Virus record (IMG/VR): IMGVR_UViG_3300006056_000031
Span: 1 to 15,910 of that record
Length of the DNA: 15,910 nucleotides
Direction: 5' to 3' (one strand)
Source: a virus
Lineage: Duplodnaviria > Heunggongvirae > Uroviricota > Caudoviricetes
In this document: one piece after another, positions 6,054 through 13,525 of the stretch
How positions within the stretch are numbered: position 1 is the stretch's first letter
Layout of the letters: each line of letters starts with the position of its first letter
Program-made: the position numbers and the translations under genes
The notes under the pieces: model-generated
Told to the model about the DNA's origin: nothing
The model's input: the letters and a program-made list of their open reading frames with translations, nothing else
The model's database searches: none

Positions 6054-6515
6054 ATGGATAAGGAATTACAAGAATCCGAAAATAGAGCATTGAATTACAT
6101 AAGATCAACTAAGGAATACTCTGATCTGAATTTTCAAGACAACAATAGTAAAATATGGGTTGCTCATAATTCTCTAATTTCAGCTGCCAAAATATACATC
6201 ATTGACAATTACAAATCCATTGATGACTACATGGATCTGGATCTTATATTAAGAAGCGGTGCAACCGGGAAGAGATTCTATTTTGGTCCAAAAAGAAACA
6301 GAAATGTTTCAAGATCAAAGGAGTTGACCAGAATATTAAAAGATCTAGATAACCAAACTATAGTTATAGAAAGCTTTGATGAAGCGATCTATGATTGGTC
6401 AGATGGGGATTTTTCGGTAGTATTCAACGGAGAATCATACAATTGGATAGATGATGATTCGGTTATAAGTATAGCGTCTTATATAGAAAAAAAGTTAGAA
6501 GAAAATGAGATATAA
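6054..6515 (+). CDS. Hypothetical protein
   Basis: ATG 6054 chosen because it follows the promoter box; track start 5967 overlaps the divergent gene. Confidence 0.8.
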   Translation: MDKELQESENRALNYIRSTKEYSDLNFQDNNSKIWVAHNSLISAAKIYIIDNYKSIDDYMDLDLILRSGATGKRFYFGPKRNRNVSRSKELTRILKDLDNQTIVIESFDEAIYDWSDGDFSVVFNGESYNWIDDDSVISIASYIEKKLEENEI

Positions 6516-7611
6516 TATTGAAGAAGTAAACAGCTACATAGCTAAGGGATTGGTTGATAAATGTCAACATAAAGAACTTCCCATTGCAATCTATAAATAT
6601 TCACGTAATTGCCAATTTGAATGGATCTGGGATGAGGTTACTATGAACATGAGGGGTACCGTTCTTGATGGGGAGGGAAATCTTATAGCACGGACTTTTC
6701 CAAAGTTCTTCAATATCGATGAGTCTAATATTCCAAACCTTCCGTTTGAGGTTTTTGAGAAACTTGATGGGTCATTAGGGATTTTATTTTTTTATGCCGG
6801 GGAATGGCATTTAGCAACTCAGGGATCTTTCTATTCTGATGTTGCTATTTATGGACAGGAGATACTAAAGAGAAATGAAACTTACAAGAGTGTTTTCTCC
6901 GAGAAGTTTACATTTCTTTTTGAAATTATATACCCGCAAAACAGGGTCGTTGTATCCTATGGCGATGATGAAAAATTGGTTTTATTAGCTGCTTTTAAGA
7001 CAGATTCCGGTCGGGAGGTACAGTATGATGAATTAAAAAGAGTTGCTGAAAGGACTGGATTCGAATGTGTCAAAAGATATGATGGAATAAAGGATCTTAA
7101 AAAGATAAAATCCATAATAAAACATAATCAGGAGGGATTCGTTATAAGATTCTCAGATGGTAGCAGGGTAAAAGTAAAAGGGGAGGAATATGTTAGACTT
7201 CATGGAGTTTTAACCGGATTCTCAAATTTGGATATCTGGAGATGTCTAAAAGAAGGCACCGATTACAGATCAATGATGGTTGATGTGCCTGATGAATATG
7301 ATGTCTGGGTTACAAATGTTGAGCAGGATCTTCTATCAAATTTTAATTTTATAGAAGCAACGATAAAGGCTGAATATAATCTATTAATCAAAAAGATCAA
7401 AAGTCAAACGCCAACTGAGGAGGAAAGATTAGATAGAAATTCTCCAGTTCTTAAAGCCTATAACAAGGAGTTTTTTGAGTTGGTGGAGGAGCACAGATTA
7501 GCAGGATATCTATTGGATCATAATAGTCGTAAGGATTATTCTAAATCCATATGGAACCAAATAAGACCAGATTACCAGAAACCATTTTGGGAGGATTACC
7601 CAAAAAAATAA
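6505..7611 (+). CDS. RNA ligase, T4 Rnl1 (RnlA)-like
   Basis: Nucleotidyltransferase motif I EKLDGSLG, ATQGSF, FEII, EGFV, RVKVKGEEY. Confidence 0.9.
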   Translation: MRYNIEEVNSYIAKGLVDKCQHKELPIAIYKYSRNCQFEWIWDEVTMNMRGTVLDGEGNLIARTFPKFFNIDESNIPNLPFEVFEKLDGSLGILFFYAGEWHLATQGSFYSDVAIYGQEILKRNETYKSVFSEKFTFLFEIIYPQNRVVVSYGDDEKLVLLAAFKTDSGREVQYDELKRVAERTGFECVKRYDGIKDLKKIKSIIKHNQEGFVIRFSDGSRVKVKGEEYVRLHGVLTGFSNLDIWRCLKEGTDYRSMMVDVPDEYDVWVTNVEQDLLSNFNFIEATIKAEYNLLIKKIKSQTPTEEERLDRNSPVLKAYNKEFFELVEEHRLAGYLLDHNSRKDYSKSIWNQIRPDYQKPFWEDYPKK

Positions 7612-8150: not shown

Positions 8151-8189
8151 CCTGGATTTCACCCAGGGCTAATATAAAAATATAAAACT

Positions 8190-8846
8190 ATGAAAATAAT
8201 ATTACAAGGACATCAGAAAATATTCTGGACATCTGATTCGCATTACAATCACTCTGGAATTTGTAGTGCTACTTCACACTGGCCTGAGGGAAGAGGAACT
8301 AGAAAATTCAATTCATTAAACGAAATGAATGACAGACTAGTATACGAGATTAATGCATCAGTAGGACCAAATGATATACTGATTCACCTAGGTGACTGGA
8401 GCTTTGGTGGTATCGAATCTATCTCGGAATTTAGAAACAGAATAAACTGTAAAACTATTCACCTATTTCTGGGAAATCATGACCATCATATAAAAAATAA
8501 CAGAGATAACGTACAGGATCTTTTTGCTAGTGTCAATAAACTTGAAACTATCGAACTTCGAGTACCACAGGGGAAGGAAACTAAGAAATACACATTTGAG
8601 TGTTGTCATTTTCCGATAGCTAGCTGGGATGGACTTGGGAAGGGATACTCGCATTTGCATGGACATGTTCATCTTCCTGGACATTTAAAGATACACAAGG
8701 GGAGAGCTATGGATGTTGGTGCGGATGGGAACAACTACAAGCCATATTCATTGAATGAAATATTGAAGGCATTGGAGGGAAGACCAAAAATGCACTTATC
8801 CCTACCAAAGGATCACCACACGGACGAAAACTACCAAGGAAATTAA
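8190..8846 (+). CDS. Calcineurin-like metallophosphoesterase
   Basis: Motifs SDSH, HLGD, LGNHD, CHFP, HGHVH, DVG. Confidence 0.92.
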   Translation: MKIILQGHQKIFWTSDSHYNHSGICSATSHWPEGRGTRKFNSLNEMNDRLVYEINASVGPNDILIHLGDWSFGGIESISEFRNRINCKTIHLFLGNHDHHIKNNRDNVQDLFASVNKLETIELRVPQGKETKKYTFECCHFPIASWDGLGKGYSHLHGHVHLPGHLKIHKGRAMDVGADGNNYKPYSLNEILKALEGRPKMHLSLPKDHHTDENYQGN

Positions 8847-8865
8847 CAATTAAAATAAAAATAAA

Positions 8866-9030
8866 ATGAAAGCAAATCTGTATTTAATAGCTCTAAGCAT
8901 CGTATTGTTACCAGCAATATATTTTATAAACGACGGTGAAAAACACTGGACCCAATTAATCCCTCTTGGATATTTAGCATATTCGTTTATAGTTGGTACG
9001 ATATCAGCAATCAGAGGAAATAGAAAATAG
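8866..9030 (+). CDS. Small two-TM membrane protein (54 aa; absent from ORF track)
   Basis: Manual translation MKANLYLIALSIVLLPAIYFINDGEKHWTQLIPLGYLAYSFIVGTISAIRGNRK*; A-rich leader; fills the intergenic gap. Confidence 0.75.
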   Translation: MKANLYLIALSIVLLPAIYFINDGEKHWTQLIPLGYLAYSFIVGTISAIRGNRK

Positions 9031-9034
9031 AAAT

Positions 9035-9502
9035 ATGCTCTATAGAATAAAAATAGGATCTCATGGGAGTTCATGGATACCTTCTATTACTTTTAGAGAA
9101 TCTATATCAGGATCTTTTTCCTTCCTTGGTGATTTTGAATATGTTATAGATTCCCAGGAGGACACTAATAAGTTAGTAGGGCTTTCCGATGGATGGACAC
9201 ACCACAAAAATTCGATAAGAATAGGATGGAGATGGAATAATGGACTGGAGTTAATGACCATAGTCTATAGGAATGGGGTAAGAGAAATAAAGTCGATGGG
9301 CTACATTGAAGCGAATAAGAAATATAAGTATCAGATACAAATTTTTGACGACTTTTATGGAATAAAGGTAACATCAGGAGATACCACATATGCGGAGCTA
9401 CTTGATAGATCCACAAAATGGAATTTCATAAGGGTTATACTAAAACCTTATTTTGGTGGAAAAAATAAAGCACCTAAGAGTTTTGATATATTGCTAGATT
9501 AA
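9035..9502 (+). CDS. Hypothetical beta-rich protein
   Basis: ATG 9035 follows the previous stop; aromatic beta-strand pattern (SIRIGWRW, PYFGG). Confidence 0.75.
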   Translation: MLYRIKIGSHGSSWIPSITFRESISGSFSFLGDFEYVIDSQEDTNKLVGLSDGWTHHKNSIRIGWRWNNGLELMTIVYRNGVREIKSMGYIEANKKYKYQIQIFDDFYGIKVTSGDTTYAELLDRSTKWNFIRVILKPYFGGKNKAPKSFDILLD

Positions 9503-9508
9503 AAAATC

Positions 9509-9814
9509 ATGGGAGAAATTAATATAGACGGAAGAGTCCTTAAGTACCAATTGATGGGTGACTGTAGTGAATATGATTCATGGGAATGGACTGAATTTTA
9601 CGAGGGAACAGAGACAGTAACCAAAAGAGTAAGATCCGGCTGGTTCGATTTATTTGGTACGAGAGTACAAGTTGAGGAACCGAAGCTGGTCTTTACTATA
9701 AACATGTCTTGTGAGAATGTTAGAATAACTAAGGGGGAATGGAGAAAAAGAATACTAAGAGAATTAGCTCTTCTTAATAGGAGAGGGGAATTAGAAAGGG
9801 GAGAATTAATATGA
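9509..9814 (+). CDS. Hypothetical protein
   Basis: 101 aa ORF; stop overlaps the next ATG (ATGA). Confidence 0.75.
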   Translation: MGEINIDGRVLKYQLMGDCSEYDSWEWTEFYEGTETVTKRVRSGWFDLFGTRVQVEEPKLVFTINMSCENVRITKGEWRKRILRELALLNRRGELERGELI

Positions 9815-9852
9815 AAGAACTATTTTTATTAAGAGGATTACCAGGAATTTAA
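9811..9852 (+). CDS. 5' fragment of split AAA_33/N4BP2-like P-loop kinase (MKELFLLRGLPG)
   Basis: ATG AAA GAA CTA TTT TTA TTA AGA GGA TTA CCA GGA ATT TAA gives the beta-strand and first half of a Walker A motif. Confidence 0.85.
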   Translation: MKELFLLRGLPGI

Positions 9853-9853
9853 C

Positions 9854-9872
9854 GATATATACTATATAAATA
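9854..9872 (+). promoter_or_regulatory. GATATATA plus TATAAATA, candidate late promoter for the inserted endonuclease
   Basis: GATATATA 9854-9861 and T4-late-type TATAAATA 9865-9872 upstream of ATG 9886. Confidence 0.4.
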
Positions 9873-9885
9873 TATTTAATATCTA

Positions 9886-10761
9886 ATGGAAGCTTTTTTT
9901 AAACAATGTCCTTCATGTAATTGTAGAATGGAATATAAGCAAAAATATTCACTAAATTATTCTATCAAGCATAATAAATTATGTAGAGCATGCTCTGCTA
10001 AAAATGCTGCATCTATTTTTCCGGATAGGGGTTGGAAAAAATTGAATGATGATGTTAAGTCTGGAAAAAAACCAAATGGATTTAAAGATAAAACGCACAA
10101 CAAAGATGCTAAATTAAAAATGTCTCTTGCTGATAAATCATATACTAAGACCATTAATTTTAAAAAAACCATGTCTAACGTAACTTCTGGTAAAAATAAT
10201 GGGATGTATGGTAAATCTTTCTATGATAGTTGGGTTGATAAATATGGTGAAAAAATTGCAGATTTGAAATTAATCGAGCATAAAGCTAAACAATCAGTTA
10301 ATAGTTCAGGTAAAAAAAATGGTATGTATGGTAAATTATCTCCGATAGGTAGCGGTAATGGATGGTCTGGATGGTACAAAGGATGGTTTTTTAGAAGTTT
10401 ACTAGAATTATCATATATGATAAACGTGATCGAAAGGTTTAATTTGGAATGGAAAAATGCTGAATATAAAAAATATACAGTAGAATATTTTAATGATGAT
10501 GTTTGCAGGACTTATAGAGCGGATTTTATAATTGAAGACAAATATATGGTTGAGGTTAAACCAAAAAAATTACACAATTCATACTCTGTAATTTTAAAAA
10601 TGGAAGCTGCTAAGTTATGGTGCATTAAAAATAATTTTGTATACAAATTAACAAGTTGCCCAAAATTATCAGATAATGAAATTTTAAATTTAATAGAAGA
10701 TAAAAAAATAATATTAACAAATAGATATAAAACAAAATTTGATGAGCAATTTAAAAAATAG
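9886..10761 (+). CDS. Putative homing endonuclease: CxxC zinc ribbon + NUMOD3-like repeats + TnsA-like PD-(D/E)xK domain
   Basis: CPSC...CRAC; GKNNGMYGK/GKKNGMYGK repeats; RSLLE...YRADF...VEVKP...KMEAAKLWC. Confidence 0.8.
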   Translation: MEAFFKQCPSCNCRMEYKQKYSLNYSIKHNKLCRACSAKNAASIFPDRGWKKLNDDVKSGKKPNGFKDKTHNKDAKLKMSLADKSYTKTINFKKTMSNVTSGKNNGMYGKSFYDSWVDKYGEKIADLKLIEHKAKQSVNSSGKKNGMYGKLSPIGSGNGWSGWYKGWFFRSLLELSYMINVIERFNLEWKNAEYKKYTVEYFNDDVCRTYRADFIIEDKYMVEVKPKKLHNSYSVILKMEAAKLWCIKNNFVYKLTSCPKLSDNEILNLIEDKKIILTNRYKTKFDEQFKK

Positions 10762-10799
10762 TAGCCCTCGCAAGGAACTTTTCCTTTTACGAGGGCTAC
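10761..10799. other. Strong RNA/DNA hairpin at the 3' end of the insert
   Basis: GTAGCCCTCG (10761-10770)/CGAGGGCTAC (10790-10799) perfect 10-bp stem enclosing AAGGAA-CTT-TTCCTT. Confidence 0.8.
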
Positions 10800-10810
10800 C
10801 GTAACCAGGA

Positions 10811-11176
10811 GCTGGTAAAACAACATTAGCTAAAATGTTAGTTGGAGAGAAAGACTATTGTCACAAAGAAGCTGATATGTATTTCATGGATCCCTATGGT
10901 AATTACAGATTTAATACTATGGAGTTAAAAGATGCTCATAAATGGTGTCAGGATGAAATGGAGTTTGTTATGACATATGAACATTCACCTGTAGTGGTAT
11001 CAAACACATTCACGCAGGAATGGGAAATGCAGCCATACTATGATTTAGCAGAAAAATATGGATATCGGGTTCATTCCTTGGTTATCGAAAATAGACACAG
11101 TGGCATCAATTCCCACGGTGTTCCCGATGAAACGCTGGAGAAAATGAAAAATAGATTTGATTTAAAACTCATATAA
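10811..11176 (+). CDS. 3' fragment of split AAA_33/N4BP2-like kinase
   Basis: AGKTTLAKM...EADMYF...VVVSNTF...HGVPDETLEKMKNRF; the frame is closed upstream by TAA at 10802-10804. Confidence 0.85.
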   Translation, partial: AGKTTLAKMLVGEKDYCHKEADMYFMDPYGNYRFNTMELKDAHKWCQDEMEFVMTYEHSPVVVSNTFTQEWEMQPYYDLAEKYGYRVHSLVIENRHSGINSHGVPDETLEKMKNRFDLKLI

Positions 11177-11916
11177 TGGAAGAAAAATATTTAACGCTTG
11201 ACGAAGCTAAGAAGAAATACGGAAGAACAGAAAATGGTAGATTCTATGGTGTGCATAAGATATTCAACATCCTCATAAACGATAAGCCTCATGGGGTTTA
11301 TAGTATTGATGGATATGAACACCAGCTAGGAAAAAACAATGGTGGACCTGCTGGATGGTGGCTTGATTATTCAACCGAGGTAAATCCGGAGAGAGAATTG
11401 GTTCCATATCTTGACCGGGGTGTTCACCGGATTTGTTGGGAGATCAAATACAAGCAGAGCAATAGAACCAAACATAAATGGGGAGAATGGAGAATTAATG
11501 CCACCGGGCTTTGCGAGATTTACGCAAACGGTAGACATGTTTACACTATGGTTAACTCGGATTTAGGTTCTGCACTTTCACATGCTTATGTTATGACGGA
11601 AAAACTTTTGCATCATGTTTATGATTTTATAAATCCGGAGAATGATAACGGCAGAAAGATCTATTACTACGGATTACCTGCAACAATTAGAGCTGGATAT
11701 GAGCCGGGTGAGATTAAAGTTTACCCTGACTATGAAAAGATACCAGAGGATAAATGGTGGAAAATATACGAGGAGAGAAAAACCCCTGCGGAAAACCTTG
11801 GATCCAAGGAGGATCGGGAAATGGAGGAATCTGATGTACAGGAACACAGGGATTATGGTTCAATTAATCATGGTGATGCTTTCTGGGATGGTATGATAAA
11901 CTGGTTTAGGAAATAA
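11176..11916 (+). CDS. Hypothetical protein
   Basis: 246 aa ORF, TAATG-coupled on both sides. Confidence 0.8.
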   Translation: MEEKYLTLDEAKKKYGRTENGRFYGVHKIFNILINDKPHGVYSIDGYEHQLGKNNGGPAGWWLDYSTEVNPERELVPYLDRGVHRICWEIKYKQSNRTKHKWGEWRINATGLCEIYANGRHVYTMVNSDLGSALSHAYVMTEKLLHHVYDFINPENDNGRKIYYYGLPATIRAGYEPGEIKVYPDYEKIPEDKWWKIYEERKTPAENLGSKEDREMEESDVQEHRDYGSINHGDAFWDGMINWFRK

Positions 11917-12323
11917 TGGGAATATTAGAGAAATCTGCCATTCTGGAATTAGATTGTCCAGGTCTAGATAAGGACCAATTAGATGTTATGGTTACAGAAT
12001 GTGAAAGAATTAAAAATGGGCTACTATTATTATTTACTGAATTTGTTTATCGACTACCATCTTCTGACATATTAAGTGAAATTTGTTTGCAGATTTCCAA
12101 CCTATTAGGTTTAACTAATAGCAATTTTTATGTTATATTAGAGGGCAGATGGGTATCAACCGAGGATATTAATGGTGATCTTAATTTTAAAGTACTTGAT
12201 GACCGCATTATTGATTTTGTATCACTGGTTGAGGCAATTAAAATAAAGACGAAACAAGGTGATGTTTTTCCTCTAGAAAGATATCTGGAGATATCAATAA
12301 TATTTTGGAAAATAACGAAGTAA
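11916..12323 (+). CDS. Hypothetical protein
   Basis: 135 aa ORF coupled to the upstream gene. Confidence 0.7.
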   Translation: MGILEKSAILELDCPGLDKDQLDVMVTECERIKNGLLLLFTEFVYRLPSSDILSEICLQISNLLGLTNSNFYVILEGRWVSTEDINGDLNFKVLDDRIIDFVSLVEAIKIKTKQGDVFPLERYLEISIIFWKITK

Positions 12324-12327
12324 AAAA

Positions 12328-13113
12328 ATGCCATATAAGAAAATATCGGGGATTTATATTATAACTAATACTATAAACGGTAAGGTTTATATTGGTAGTG
12401 CAAAATCTATCTTTAAAAGATTGCATCGTCATAGATACATGTTGGATAAAAATAGGCACACGAATAGACATATGCAATCATCATATAACAAGTATGGATC
12501 TTCTAGCTTTACTTTTGAAATAGTTGAGATAACAATTCTTGATAAAAAAATAATGGAGGATAGGGAGGAATTTTATATATTATCATTTAGATCAAACGAT
12601 AAAAAATTTGGTTATAATAAAAGATTAGATTGTAGAACAAACCTGGGAATTAATGCATCCGATGAATCAAGAGAAAAAATGAGGATTTCTCATATTGGAA
12701 TTAATCAAAGCAGTGAAGCAAAGAAAAAAATAGCAATTTCGCGATATAAGGAGATCTATAAGCTAGATTCTTTAGGAATTATACTTTGTAAATATGATTC
12801 TATAATTTCAGCTTCCTCTGAAAATGATATATGTAAACAGTCCATTTCTTCTGCTTGTATAGGAAAAATCCCACATGCTGGAGGATATTATTGGTCATTT
12901 GTTGATTGTTATGATGCATCAGATGAATTTGGGGAGATAAAAAGAACATATAAACAAAAAAAATTCATTTATAAAAATACGAAAACACTTGAAACGTATA
13001 GTAAATTGTGCGAAGTTGCAAAGATTCTTGGTAAGACCAGTTCCAATTTAACTAACGCATTTAATGGGAGAATTAAAAACAATACAAAATTTATAAGATA
13101 TGAAAGAGAATAA
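12328..13113 (+). CDS. Free-standing GIY-YIG homing endonuclease with NUMOD3/NUMOD1-like DNA-binding modules
   Basis: SGIYIITNTINGKVYIGSA, R..H, FTFEIVE, YN motifs; SDESREKMRISH and KEIYKLD...YWSF modules. Confidence 0.9.
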   Translation: MPYKKISGIYIITNTINGKVYIGSAKSIFKRLHRHRYMLDKNRHTNRHMQSSYNKYGSSSFTFEIVEITILDKKIMEDREEFYILSFRSNDKKFGYNKRLDCRTNLGINASDESREKMRISHIGINQSSEAKKKIAISRYKEIYKLDSLGIILCKYDSIISASSENDICKQSISSACIGKIPHAGGYYWSFVDCYDASDEFGEIKRTYKQKKFIYKNTKTLETYSKLCEVAKILGKTSSNLTNAFNGRIKNNTKFIRYERE

Positions 13114-13525
13114 CAGTGGCTTTAATTTGTTTCTTGATGACATACGCCACCCGTATGATTGCATAAGCTATATGCCATCTCCTGGAATATATTCAAAATA
13201 CGTGTGGGAAACGGTCCGCAGTTACGATGAATTCATTTCATTCATCTCGGAACATGGTCTGCCGGATCTAATATCCTTTGATCACGATCTAGCGGACGAG
13301 CATTATAATCCCGATATGTACAACGGACAGGAGATCTACAACAAACACTATTCCGAATTCAAAGAGAAGACAGGAATGGACTGTGCAAAATGGCTTGTCG
13401 ACTATTGCATGGATAATAAAAAGGAACTCCCTGATTTTGTCGTACATTCAATGAATCCAGCGGGAGCTGAGAACATCAAACAACTATTAACACAATTTAA
13501 AGAATTTCAACATAAAAATCAATAA
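13100..13525 (+). CDS. Cyclic-phosphate-processing receiver-like (REC-fold) protein
   Basis: LFLDDIR, VRSYDEF, ISFDHDL, TGMDCAKWL, VHSMNPAG pattern. Confidence 0.8.
   Translation: MKENNSGFNLFLDDIRHPYDCISYMPSPGIYSKYVWETVRSYDEFISFISEHGLPDLISFDHDLADEHYNPDMYNGQEIYNKHYSEFKEKTGMDCAKWLVDYCMDNKKELPDFVVHSMNPAGAENIKQLLTQFKEFQHKNQ

Follow-up and report, generated by a model that had tools for sequence, protein, structure and literature searches.

A putative homing-endonuclease cassette in the Walker A codons of a phage P-loop kinase gene, with a candidate short ribosomal stop-hop

The first 15.9 kb of the 79.9-kb IMG/VR virus record IMGVR_UViG_3300006056_000031 (estimated completeness about 30%), a segment of 15,910 nucleotides (nt) referred to here as the window, contains a kinase gene that is interrupted within the codons of its Walker A motif. 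Comparison with related loci indicates that a mobile homing-endonuclease cassette has entered a phage P-loop kinase gene here, and we regard it as close to certain that the insertion left behind a stub of the old gene start and brought a replacement start with it. It is probable, judging from the comparative anatomy, that the cassette encodes a PD-(D/E)xK homing nuclease and carries a short insert which protects the target site of the nuclease and which would be skipped by a ribosomal hop of 5–9 nt. The evidence also leans towards the view that the related loci form a natural family of programmed short stop-hops, driven by hairpin refolding and serving as a self-immunity device of the nuclease, which would make them a second, independent and minimal invention of the principle known from gene 60 of phage T4.

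The initial annotation described a kinase gene split in its Walker A codons by a 964-bp insert with a nuclease gene, and the coordinates were confirmed. The heptamer ACCAGGA is repeated at both insert ends (9840–9846 and 10804–10810, 964 bp apart), and stop codons lie beside both GGA copies, TAA 9850–9852 one codon beyond the first GGA and TAA 10802–10804 directly before the second CCA. Both kinase halves are indeed intact, and the predicted length of 133 amino acids for the joined halves is correct, the 3′ part from GCT 10811 to 11173 giving 121 of them. The flanks of the nuclease gene had been described as non-coding, which does not hold for the 49 nt 3′ of the nuclease open reading frame (ORF), since these encode a second kinase N-terminus. 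The 60 nt leading up to TAA 10802, translated in register with the 3′ half, give MSNLKNSSPR-KELFLLRGLP, a copy with a 10-residue extension and its own ATG at 10742, which overlaps the end of the nuclease ORF. Eight of the ten KELFLLRGLP codons shared by the stub and the second copy differ synonymously. The site at the junction reads CCG TAA CCA GGA; deletion of TAA-CCA gives a perfect GLPGAGKT Walker A motif, and the consensus GxxGxGK[ST] is complete only after the proposed hop. Because this second N-terminus lies directly before the 3′ half, the working gene would be 10742–11176 with an in-frame stop, 9811–9852 would be a leftover stub, and joining of the stub to the 3′ half is not needed for a product. 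The features of the region are as follows, where L064, a 430-kb viral contig, is a close relative with an uninterrupted kinase gene.

9509–9814, plus strand: upstream gene of 101 amino acids without a family match, whose TGA overlaps the ATG at 9811
9811–9852, plus strand: putative remnant of the 5′ end of the ancestral kinase gene, MKELFLLRGLPGI and a stop codon, aligning with the start of the uninterrupted L064 gene through 9847
9840–9846, plus strand: left edge of the insert, marked by the upstream ACCAGGA repeat, in which CCA GGA come from the old P-loop; the empty-site alignment to L064 overlaps here
9865–9872, plus strand: TATAAATA, a candidate, by sequence only, for what we take to be a T4-late-promoter-like element, 13 nt 5′ of the nuclease ATG
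9886–10761, plus strand: free-standing homing-endonuclease-like gene of 291 amino acids (phrog_15427, fold match, conserved residues)
10742–10804, plus strand: replacement kinase start, with the MSNLKNSSPR extension, the recoded beta-1 strand KELFLLRGLP and TAA, a layout common to 50 distinct relatives
10761–10799, plus strand: predicted two-tier RNA hairpin (folding energy, shuffles, covariation)
10799–10810, plus strand: candidate recoding site, CCG (take-off Pro), TAA (stop), CCA (landing) and GGA (resume, Gly of GxxGxGK)
10804–11074, plus strand: probable co-conversion tract, with lowered identity to the syntenic L064
10808–11176, plus strand: kinase body, AAA_33 P-loop kinase, 122 amino acids and a stop, open and intact

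Independent assemblies from four other wastewater or activated-sludge studies reproduce both junctions and the TAA, and the junctions are therefore not an assembly artefact; one 12.5-kb contig covers the whole stretch with two differences. Sequence nearly identical to positions 9600–11200 occurs in many wastewater and activated-sludge metagenome studies (2017–2025), as well as in the mouse gut runs of one study. Searches of GenBank phages by blastn and tblastn gave no match.

In L064, both flanks of the insert overlap on ACCAGGA. Positions 8184–9847 of the window are 93.6% identical to this contig, and the identity runs at 92–95% in the left flank, falls to 72–83% over 10804–11074 and returns to 88–97% after 11074. 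The empty site and the dip in identity together form the pattern expected of homing with co-conversion of donor sequence. Other uninterrupted alleles, 86–90% identical at the protein level, exist elsewhere (P0001–P0005). The overlap of TGA and ATG at 9811, arranged alike in L064, points to an ancestral translational coupling of the 101-residue gene to the kinase. From the ends of the stubs in the window, L172, L173 and L102 we infer that cleavage occurs within intact Walker A codons.

The cassette is mobile among kinase alleles, and the same nuclease adjoins very different ones. Between L108 and L109, for example, the proportion of synonymous differences (pS) is 0.006 in the nuclease (range of nuclease pS, 0–0.006) and 0.51 in the kinase body. 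Cassette-bearing kinase bodies have ratios of nonsynonymous to synonymous substitution (dN/dS) of 0.04–0.23; we rejected these low values as proof of function, since the nuclease is far less diverged than the bodies and the cassette moves between alleles. In the deep lineages, synonymous sites of the nuclease are saturated (pS 0.5–0.67), and deep type-B pairs consequently give no test of selection.

IMG/VR and JGI metagenome contigs were searched with the kinase, the nuclease and the DNA pattern, which yielded 97 loci with 50 distinct junctions. These have in common an ATG, an extension of about 10 codons, a hydrophobic beta-1 strand, R-G-(V/L/I)-P, a stop, a short gap and GGN NNN GGN AAR. The stop directly follows the Pro codon in all 50 junctions and may be any of the three (TGA 24, TAA 21, TAG 5), while the take-off codon is CCT in 27, CCG in 19 and CCA in 4. 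When the six bases after CCT were left unspecified in a pattern scan, all 18 kinase matches had TGA or TAA. The gap after the stop is most often 3 nt (35 junctions) and otherwise 2 nt (6), 4 nt (7), 5 nt (1) or 6 nt (1), such that start and body stand in all three relative frames, even among close relatives; the KITRPSQ subfamily, for example, has the gaps CA, CCA and CTA. The junction of L177 (minus strand, near 1461 of the reverse complement) has tandem stops, CCG TAA TAA CCT GGT, in a 9-nt insert. The triplet before the resume codon is CTA (18), CCA (12), CCG (7), ACA (6), TCA (3), CCT (2), CTT (1) or TTA (1). Take-off and landing are matched as Pro codons in the window (CCG/CCA); across the family the landing triplet is CCN in 21 of 50 and wobble-compatible (CTA, TCA, CTT, TTA) in 23. 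All landing triplets except ACA, which is mismatched at its first base, can pair with a Pro anticodon by G-C or G-U.

All 41 complete kinase bodies (116–277 amino acids) are open, and kinases of this family that lie beside such a nuclease are either of the cassette type or continuous, with none broken in another way. The body of 277 amino acids belongs to the subfamily of L213 and L214 and is probably fused to another domain. The beta-1 positions keep hydrophobic residues, and at conserved hydrophobic or basic positions Leu, Val and Arg are encoded by several synonymous codons. In most loci the stub is absent and the nuclease and kinase genes are divergent, about 55 nt separating their 5′ ends. 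The co-directional type, in which the new ATG overlaps the nuclease stop, comprises the window, L172, L173/174, L102–106, L107 and others. L172, with a nuclease 56% identical to that of the window, has the same stub and GGA|ATT junction; the stubs of L173 and L102 end a few codons off, and stubs are found throughout L102–106. As most related cassettes (the divergent type and L107) have no upstream stub, the stub cannot be required, and on this comparison stubs mark the insertion point in Walker A and are otherwise dispensable. Two cassette-type kinase genes, L165:1360–1809 and L170:7990–8421, retain the extension, hairpin, stop and open body with no nuclease gene nearby. The start codon of L165 is apparently GTG.

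The replacement start coincides with a predicted RNA hairpin. In the window, this has a lower stem of 10 bp (10761–10770 with 10790–10799) and an upper stem of 6 bp (10772–10777 with 10781–10786), its 3′ end is the first base of the take-off codon CCG, and its apical loop begins about 22 nt before that codon. Its folding energy is −24.2 kcal/mol (z −4.1), and none of 200 shuffled sequences folds as well. The hairpin of each of the 50 cassette junctions ends at the Pro codon and folds at −18.1 to −29.5 kcal/mol; the corresponding 63 nt in 54 distinct uninterrupted kinases have a median of −4.25 and a best value of −9.9 kcal/mol. An ungapped alignment of 18 sequences has 85.7% of its cells paired, against 79.5% after shuffling (0 of 500 shuffles reach the observed value) and 45–62% when the 3′ partners are slid, and five pairs are changed on both sides. 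The deep lineages have differing, fully compensated stems, with the arms UAGCCCUCG/CGAGGGCUA in the window, GGAGCCCUCU/AGAGGGCUCC in L107, CCCCUCUCA/UGAGAGGGG in L102 and GCACUCCCC/GGGGAGUGC in the main clade. The 3′ arm consists of Arg-Gly-Val/Leu codons, and the extension thus supplies the matching 5′ arm. Four loci in which the nuclease is co-directional with a continuous kinase of substituted P-loop reach −6 to −9 kcal/mol and have no hairpin, which argues that the hairpin goes with the stop-containing insert and not with the nuclease. A role as transcription terminator was considered and rejected, as there is no U-tract and no terminator-like site.

The nuclease gene encodes a CxxC...CxxC finger, NUMOD3-like repeats and a C-terminal PD-(D/E)xK (TnsA-like) domain. 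The assignment as an endonuclease in the initial annotation was borne out by a match to phrog_15427 (“endonuclease”, E 7e-11) and by a TnsA-like fold; Pfam gave no match at E <= 0.01, TnsA-like, PDDEXK_3 and NUMOD3 being weak matches below cut-off. Among 18 homologs, E183, D213 and K225 are invariant and E223 nearly so. The AlphaFold model has a predicted local distance difference test (pLDDT) score of 81, and its best fold match in the PDB (Foldseek) is TnsA, 1t0f, with probability 1.0 and E 8e-3, all Foldseek matches being weak. Taken together, the residues and the model indicate that the nuclease is a free-standing endonuclease of the PD-(D/E)xK type. That it belongs to the Vsr-like/EDxHD family (Dassa et al. 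2009, PMC2677866) is not supported, the Foldseek matches to I-Bth0305I and Vsr being weak. The nuclease genes are intact and under purifying selection.

Nucleases of this family are also found in other settings. In the same phage record, a paralog (L002:1084–2055; G000:C1:69392–69934), with 51% identity over the C-terminal 180 residues, faces a stop-free P-loop ATPase gene (..IIGSPMSGKST..) 5′ end to 5′ end. At L235, L251, L240 and L209, family nucleases lie co-directional and 5′ of kinases with the P-loops RGASGSGKS, RGVSGSGKS, RGCPSSGKS and RGLPGGGKS, and substitution of the P-loop, with no insert, appears from these sequences to be an alternative escape from the nuclease. At L122/L129, L126/L127 and L123, they lie directly 5′ of other P-loop kinases (..IEGGDRLGKST.., ..LEGQDNTSKTT.. 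and ..CGPSCSGKT..). The genomic neighbourhoods suggest that the nuclease family overall tracks Walker A genes. At L116 and L120/L121, family nucleases lie between an ORF ending in the intein-like block GCVLEDTKIKIRK and a next ORF, a layout that resembles the split-intein arrangement of a “fractured gene” (Dassa et al. 2009, PMC2677866).

The proposed history and mechanism are as follows. The nuclease would cut the intact Walker A sequence of cassette-free phages, and repair would copy the cassette in and drag part of the kinase body along. The 6-nt TAA-CCA insert would disrupt the target site and so protect the carrier. Translation would begin at 10742, and the ribosome would pause once peptidyl-tRNA(Pro) occupies CCG and the slow Pro-stop context is in the A site, a Pro codon before a stop being reportedly a slow context for termination. 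After a slide of 6 nt, it would pair anew with CCA and take up decoding at GGA to yield MSNLKNSSPRKELFLLRGLP-GAGKTT..., a product whose P-loop is normal. With its 3′ arm ending at the take-off codon, the hairpin could re-form as the mRNA exits the ribosome and pull it forward, as has been suggested for the stem-loop 5′ of the take-off codon in T4 gene 60. Only a hop covers gaps of 2–6 nt and tandem stops by one mechanism and gives a normal P-loop. It is favoured by the persistence of the hairpin, Pro-stop, extension and beta-1 strand across lineages whose nucleases are saturated with synonymous change, and by the fact that these features travel with the cassette.

Several points weigh against the hop. 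It has been read from comparative anatomy throughout. The commonest landing triplet, CTA (18 of 50), is an imperfect Pro codon, and ACA occurs in six cassettes. The pairing of CCN with its anticodon is rich in G+C and should resist take-off, and an A-site stem-loop, as in gene 60, would not fit into so short a gap. The cassette detector demanded [RK]G.P before the stop, and the invariance of R-G-x-P is thus partly by construction. No Shine-Dalgarno sequence precedes ATG 10742 in the window, unlike the start of the stub, and expression from 10742 would therefore need coupling to the nuclease ORF. Finally, because the cassette is mobile among alleles, the open bodies and low dN/dS may reflect recent invasions of healthy genes; as open bodies do not prove selection after invasion, the argument for a hop rests on the features that travel with the cassette.

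The main rival, foreshadowed by the initial annotation as a recent inactivating insertion, is one that we consider unlikely. In this case the kinase would be dead and the cassette purely selfish, with the stop terminating translation, the open bodies maintained by constant re-invasion, and the hairpin and short ORF serving another role or hitch-hiking. In its favour, movement of the cassette between alleles is much faster than the divergence of the bodies, a neutral site would be expected to have indels such as those in the gap, and no Shine-Dalgarno sequence precedes ATG 10742. A dead gene is harder to reconcile with the retention, across the saturated lineages, of an ATG, an extension, a beta-1 strand with synonymous turnover, a Pro codon, any of three stops and a compensated hairpin at a fixed distance, nor is there any other indel or nonsense change in the 21-codon start among the 50 variants. 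The link of the hairpin to the stop-containing insert rather than to nuclease adjacency as such, and the two nuclease-less loci that retain the arrangement together with an open body, argue in the same direction.

A second alternative, which we hold to be very improbable, is that the stop is passed by readthrough (3- and 6-nt gaps), by a +1 shift (4-nt gap) or by a −1 or +2 shift (2- and 5-nt gaps), so that the P-loop would gain one to three residues. It is favoured by the in-frame halves of the window, by the proneness of CCU-UGA-type sites to shifting and by the poor termination context of Pro-stop. Against this, three mechanisms would be needed among close relatives such as the KITRPSQ subfamily with its three gaps, L177 has two tandem TAA, and bacteria read through UAA with very low efficiency. 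None of the 16 homologs read, which were drawn from the top 120 of 5742, has sense codons inserted in the Walker A motif. Two further candidates for passing the site were rejected: termination-reinitiation, as there is no ATG, GTG or TTG between the stop and the P-loop lysine, and transcriptional slippage, as there is no homopolymer run at the site in the window.

The least credible alternative, a joining of the stub to the 3′ half by 964-nt splicing, by bypass from GGA 9844 to GGA 10808 or by ACCAGGA-mediated DNA excision, could draw on the repeat at both ends and the clean 133-residue join and is opposed by the tiny non-ORF flanks (33–39 nt and 49 nt), by a stop that lies one codon beyond the first GGA and not directly after it, and by the many cassettes that are stub-less yet have the same stop-containing start. 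The insert is not an intein, as the initial annotation had concluded (its 964 nt are not divisible by 3, it has stops at 9850 and 10802, and there is no Hint domain), nor is it a group I intron, since no Rfam family, the group I and group II intron models included, reached its gathering score in the window. RNA splicing, which had been offered as a route to the product, is not supported, as RNA-library contigs span 9679–9910 and 10666–10805 unspliced and unedited across both insert ends, with the qualification that these may include DNA carry-over and could miss rare forms. Excision at the DNA level fared no better, as no insert-less joint was seen in four DNA runs, where rare forms could likewise be missed. 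The suggested ribosomal bypass is not supported as a 964-nt event from GGA to GGA and survives as a different, 6-nt hop, CCG-UAA-CCA at 10799–10807.

The 3′ half is AAA_33-like, as had been proposed (PF13671, E 6e-10, 40 bits against a cut-off of 27), and the kinase matches phrog_2071 (E 3e-37). Its 5742 homologs are mostly 131–134 amino acids long with a continuous RGLPGxGK. Sequence searches of the PDB with the kinase and with the family profile gave nothing significant. A polynucleotide-kinase role is only suggested, tentatively, by matches to phrog_505 (E 2e-4) and Pnkp1 (E 0.37) and by neighbouring genes. These comprise, upstream of the kinase between 6505 and 8846, an Rnl1-like RNA ligase (6505–7611) and a calcineurin-like phosphoesterase (8190–8846, just under the Pfam cut-off). 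Ligase, phosphoesterase and kinase would be compatible with a putative RNA-repair set.

Other phage genes in the window encode a Dda-like helicase, ClpP, an SLT lysin and a GIY-YIG endonuclease. The last of these is a homing endonuclease (12328–13113) which, together with a 135-residue ORF (11916–12323), makes up a region (11922–13130) that is missing from L064, where about 62 nt are found; it looks like a second, independent endonuclease insertion polymorphism. Conversely, L064 has about 500 bp (L064:3375–3872) between the kinase and the next gene that are without counterpart in the window. No tRNA or suppressor genes were found in a search of the 15.9-kb window, and a generic sigma-70 scan gave nothing above chance.

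To our knowledge, programmed bypass has so far been represented by one example in bacterial viruses (T4 gene 60 and its homologs) and by the byps of yeast mitochondria. The T4 mobA/gene 39–gene 60 cassette reportedly combines a homing endonuclease with a translational bypass of 50 nt. As in the kinase cassette, a free-standing homing endonuclease moves together with an untranslated insert that interrupts a conserved motif of the adjoining gene; a stop comes right after the take-off codon, and there are an N-terminal extension and a stem-loop 5′ of the take-off; and some loci lack the nuclease and retain the insert. The distance from the apical loop to the take-off codon is similar as well (26 nt in gene 60). 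However, MobA is an HNH nuclease and its host gene encodes a topoisomerase, whereas the nuclease described here is PD-(D/E)xK/TnsA-like with NUMOD3 repeats and its host gene is an AAA_33 kinase. The gap is 5–9 nt in total instead of 50, the take-off codon is Pro (CCN) instead of Gly (GGA), the landing is often wobble-matched, neither an A-site stem-loop nor an internal Shine-Dalgarno sequence could be accommodated, and there is no sequence homology. By this comparison, the cassette is analogous to the gene 60 bypass without belonging to it. The bypass insert of the T4 MobA element keeps its carrier from being nicked (Manning and Atkins 2022, 10.1101/2022.08.31.505936). Pairing within the exiting mRNA has been proposed as the forward driver of bypass (10.1101/2024.12.09.627546), and a hairpin at the position of the gene 60 5′ stem-loop fits this proposal.

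Precedents for the hop itself are synthetic. Stop-hops between matched codons flanking a stop, in which 9 nt are decoded as one amino acid, work in E. coli (Weiss et al. 1987, via PMC5009743), and natural in-frame stop-hops have long been expected and were not known at the time of a 2016 review of recoding (PMC5009743). The window, with CCG-UAA-CCA and the next codon in frame, has exactly this layout. The synthetic hops were low-level and artificial and had no stimulators, whereas the layout of the cassette is conserved in nature, with a hairpin and an extension, and includes variants of 5, 7, 8 and 9 nt. The Byp elements in the mitochondria of Magnusiomyces capitatus are short bypassed inserts in which take-off and landing are often matched at two positions out of three (PMC5009743); unlike the cassette, they are 27–55 nt long and are unlinked to endonuclease genes or to a 5′ hairpin. 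Intronless homing by T4 Seg and Mob nucleases and “fractured genes” (Dassa et al. 2009, PMC2677866) are alike in having a free-standing nuclease in or beside its target gene, co-conversion of the flanks and an interrupted gene. The cassette differs from fractured genes in that there is no split intein or reconstitution from two subunits, a duplicate gene start is supplied, and the nuclease is not demonstrably Vsr-like (EDxHD). No paper on natural stop-hops or on such a kinase cassette was found.

Gene callers now mis-annotate genes of this kind as truncated or as pseudogenes. If the proposed stop-hop is correct, the cassette would provide a minimal system, consisting of a 5–9 nt hop, a 5′ hairpin, a Pro-stop pause and a short nascent extension, in which release, slide, landing and the model of exiting mRNA as the driver could be tested. 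It would also mean that homing endonucleases can enter the most conserved motifs of genes without killing those genes.

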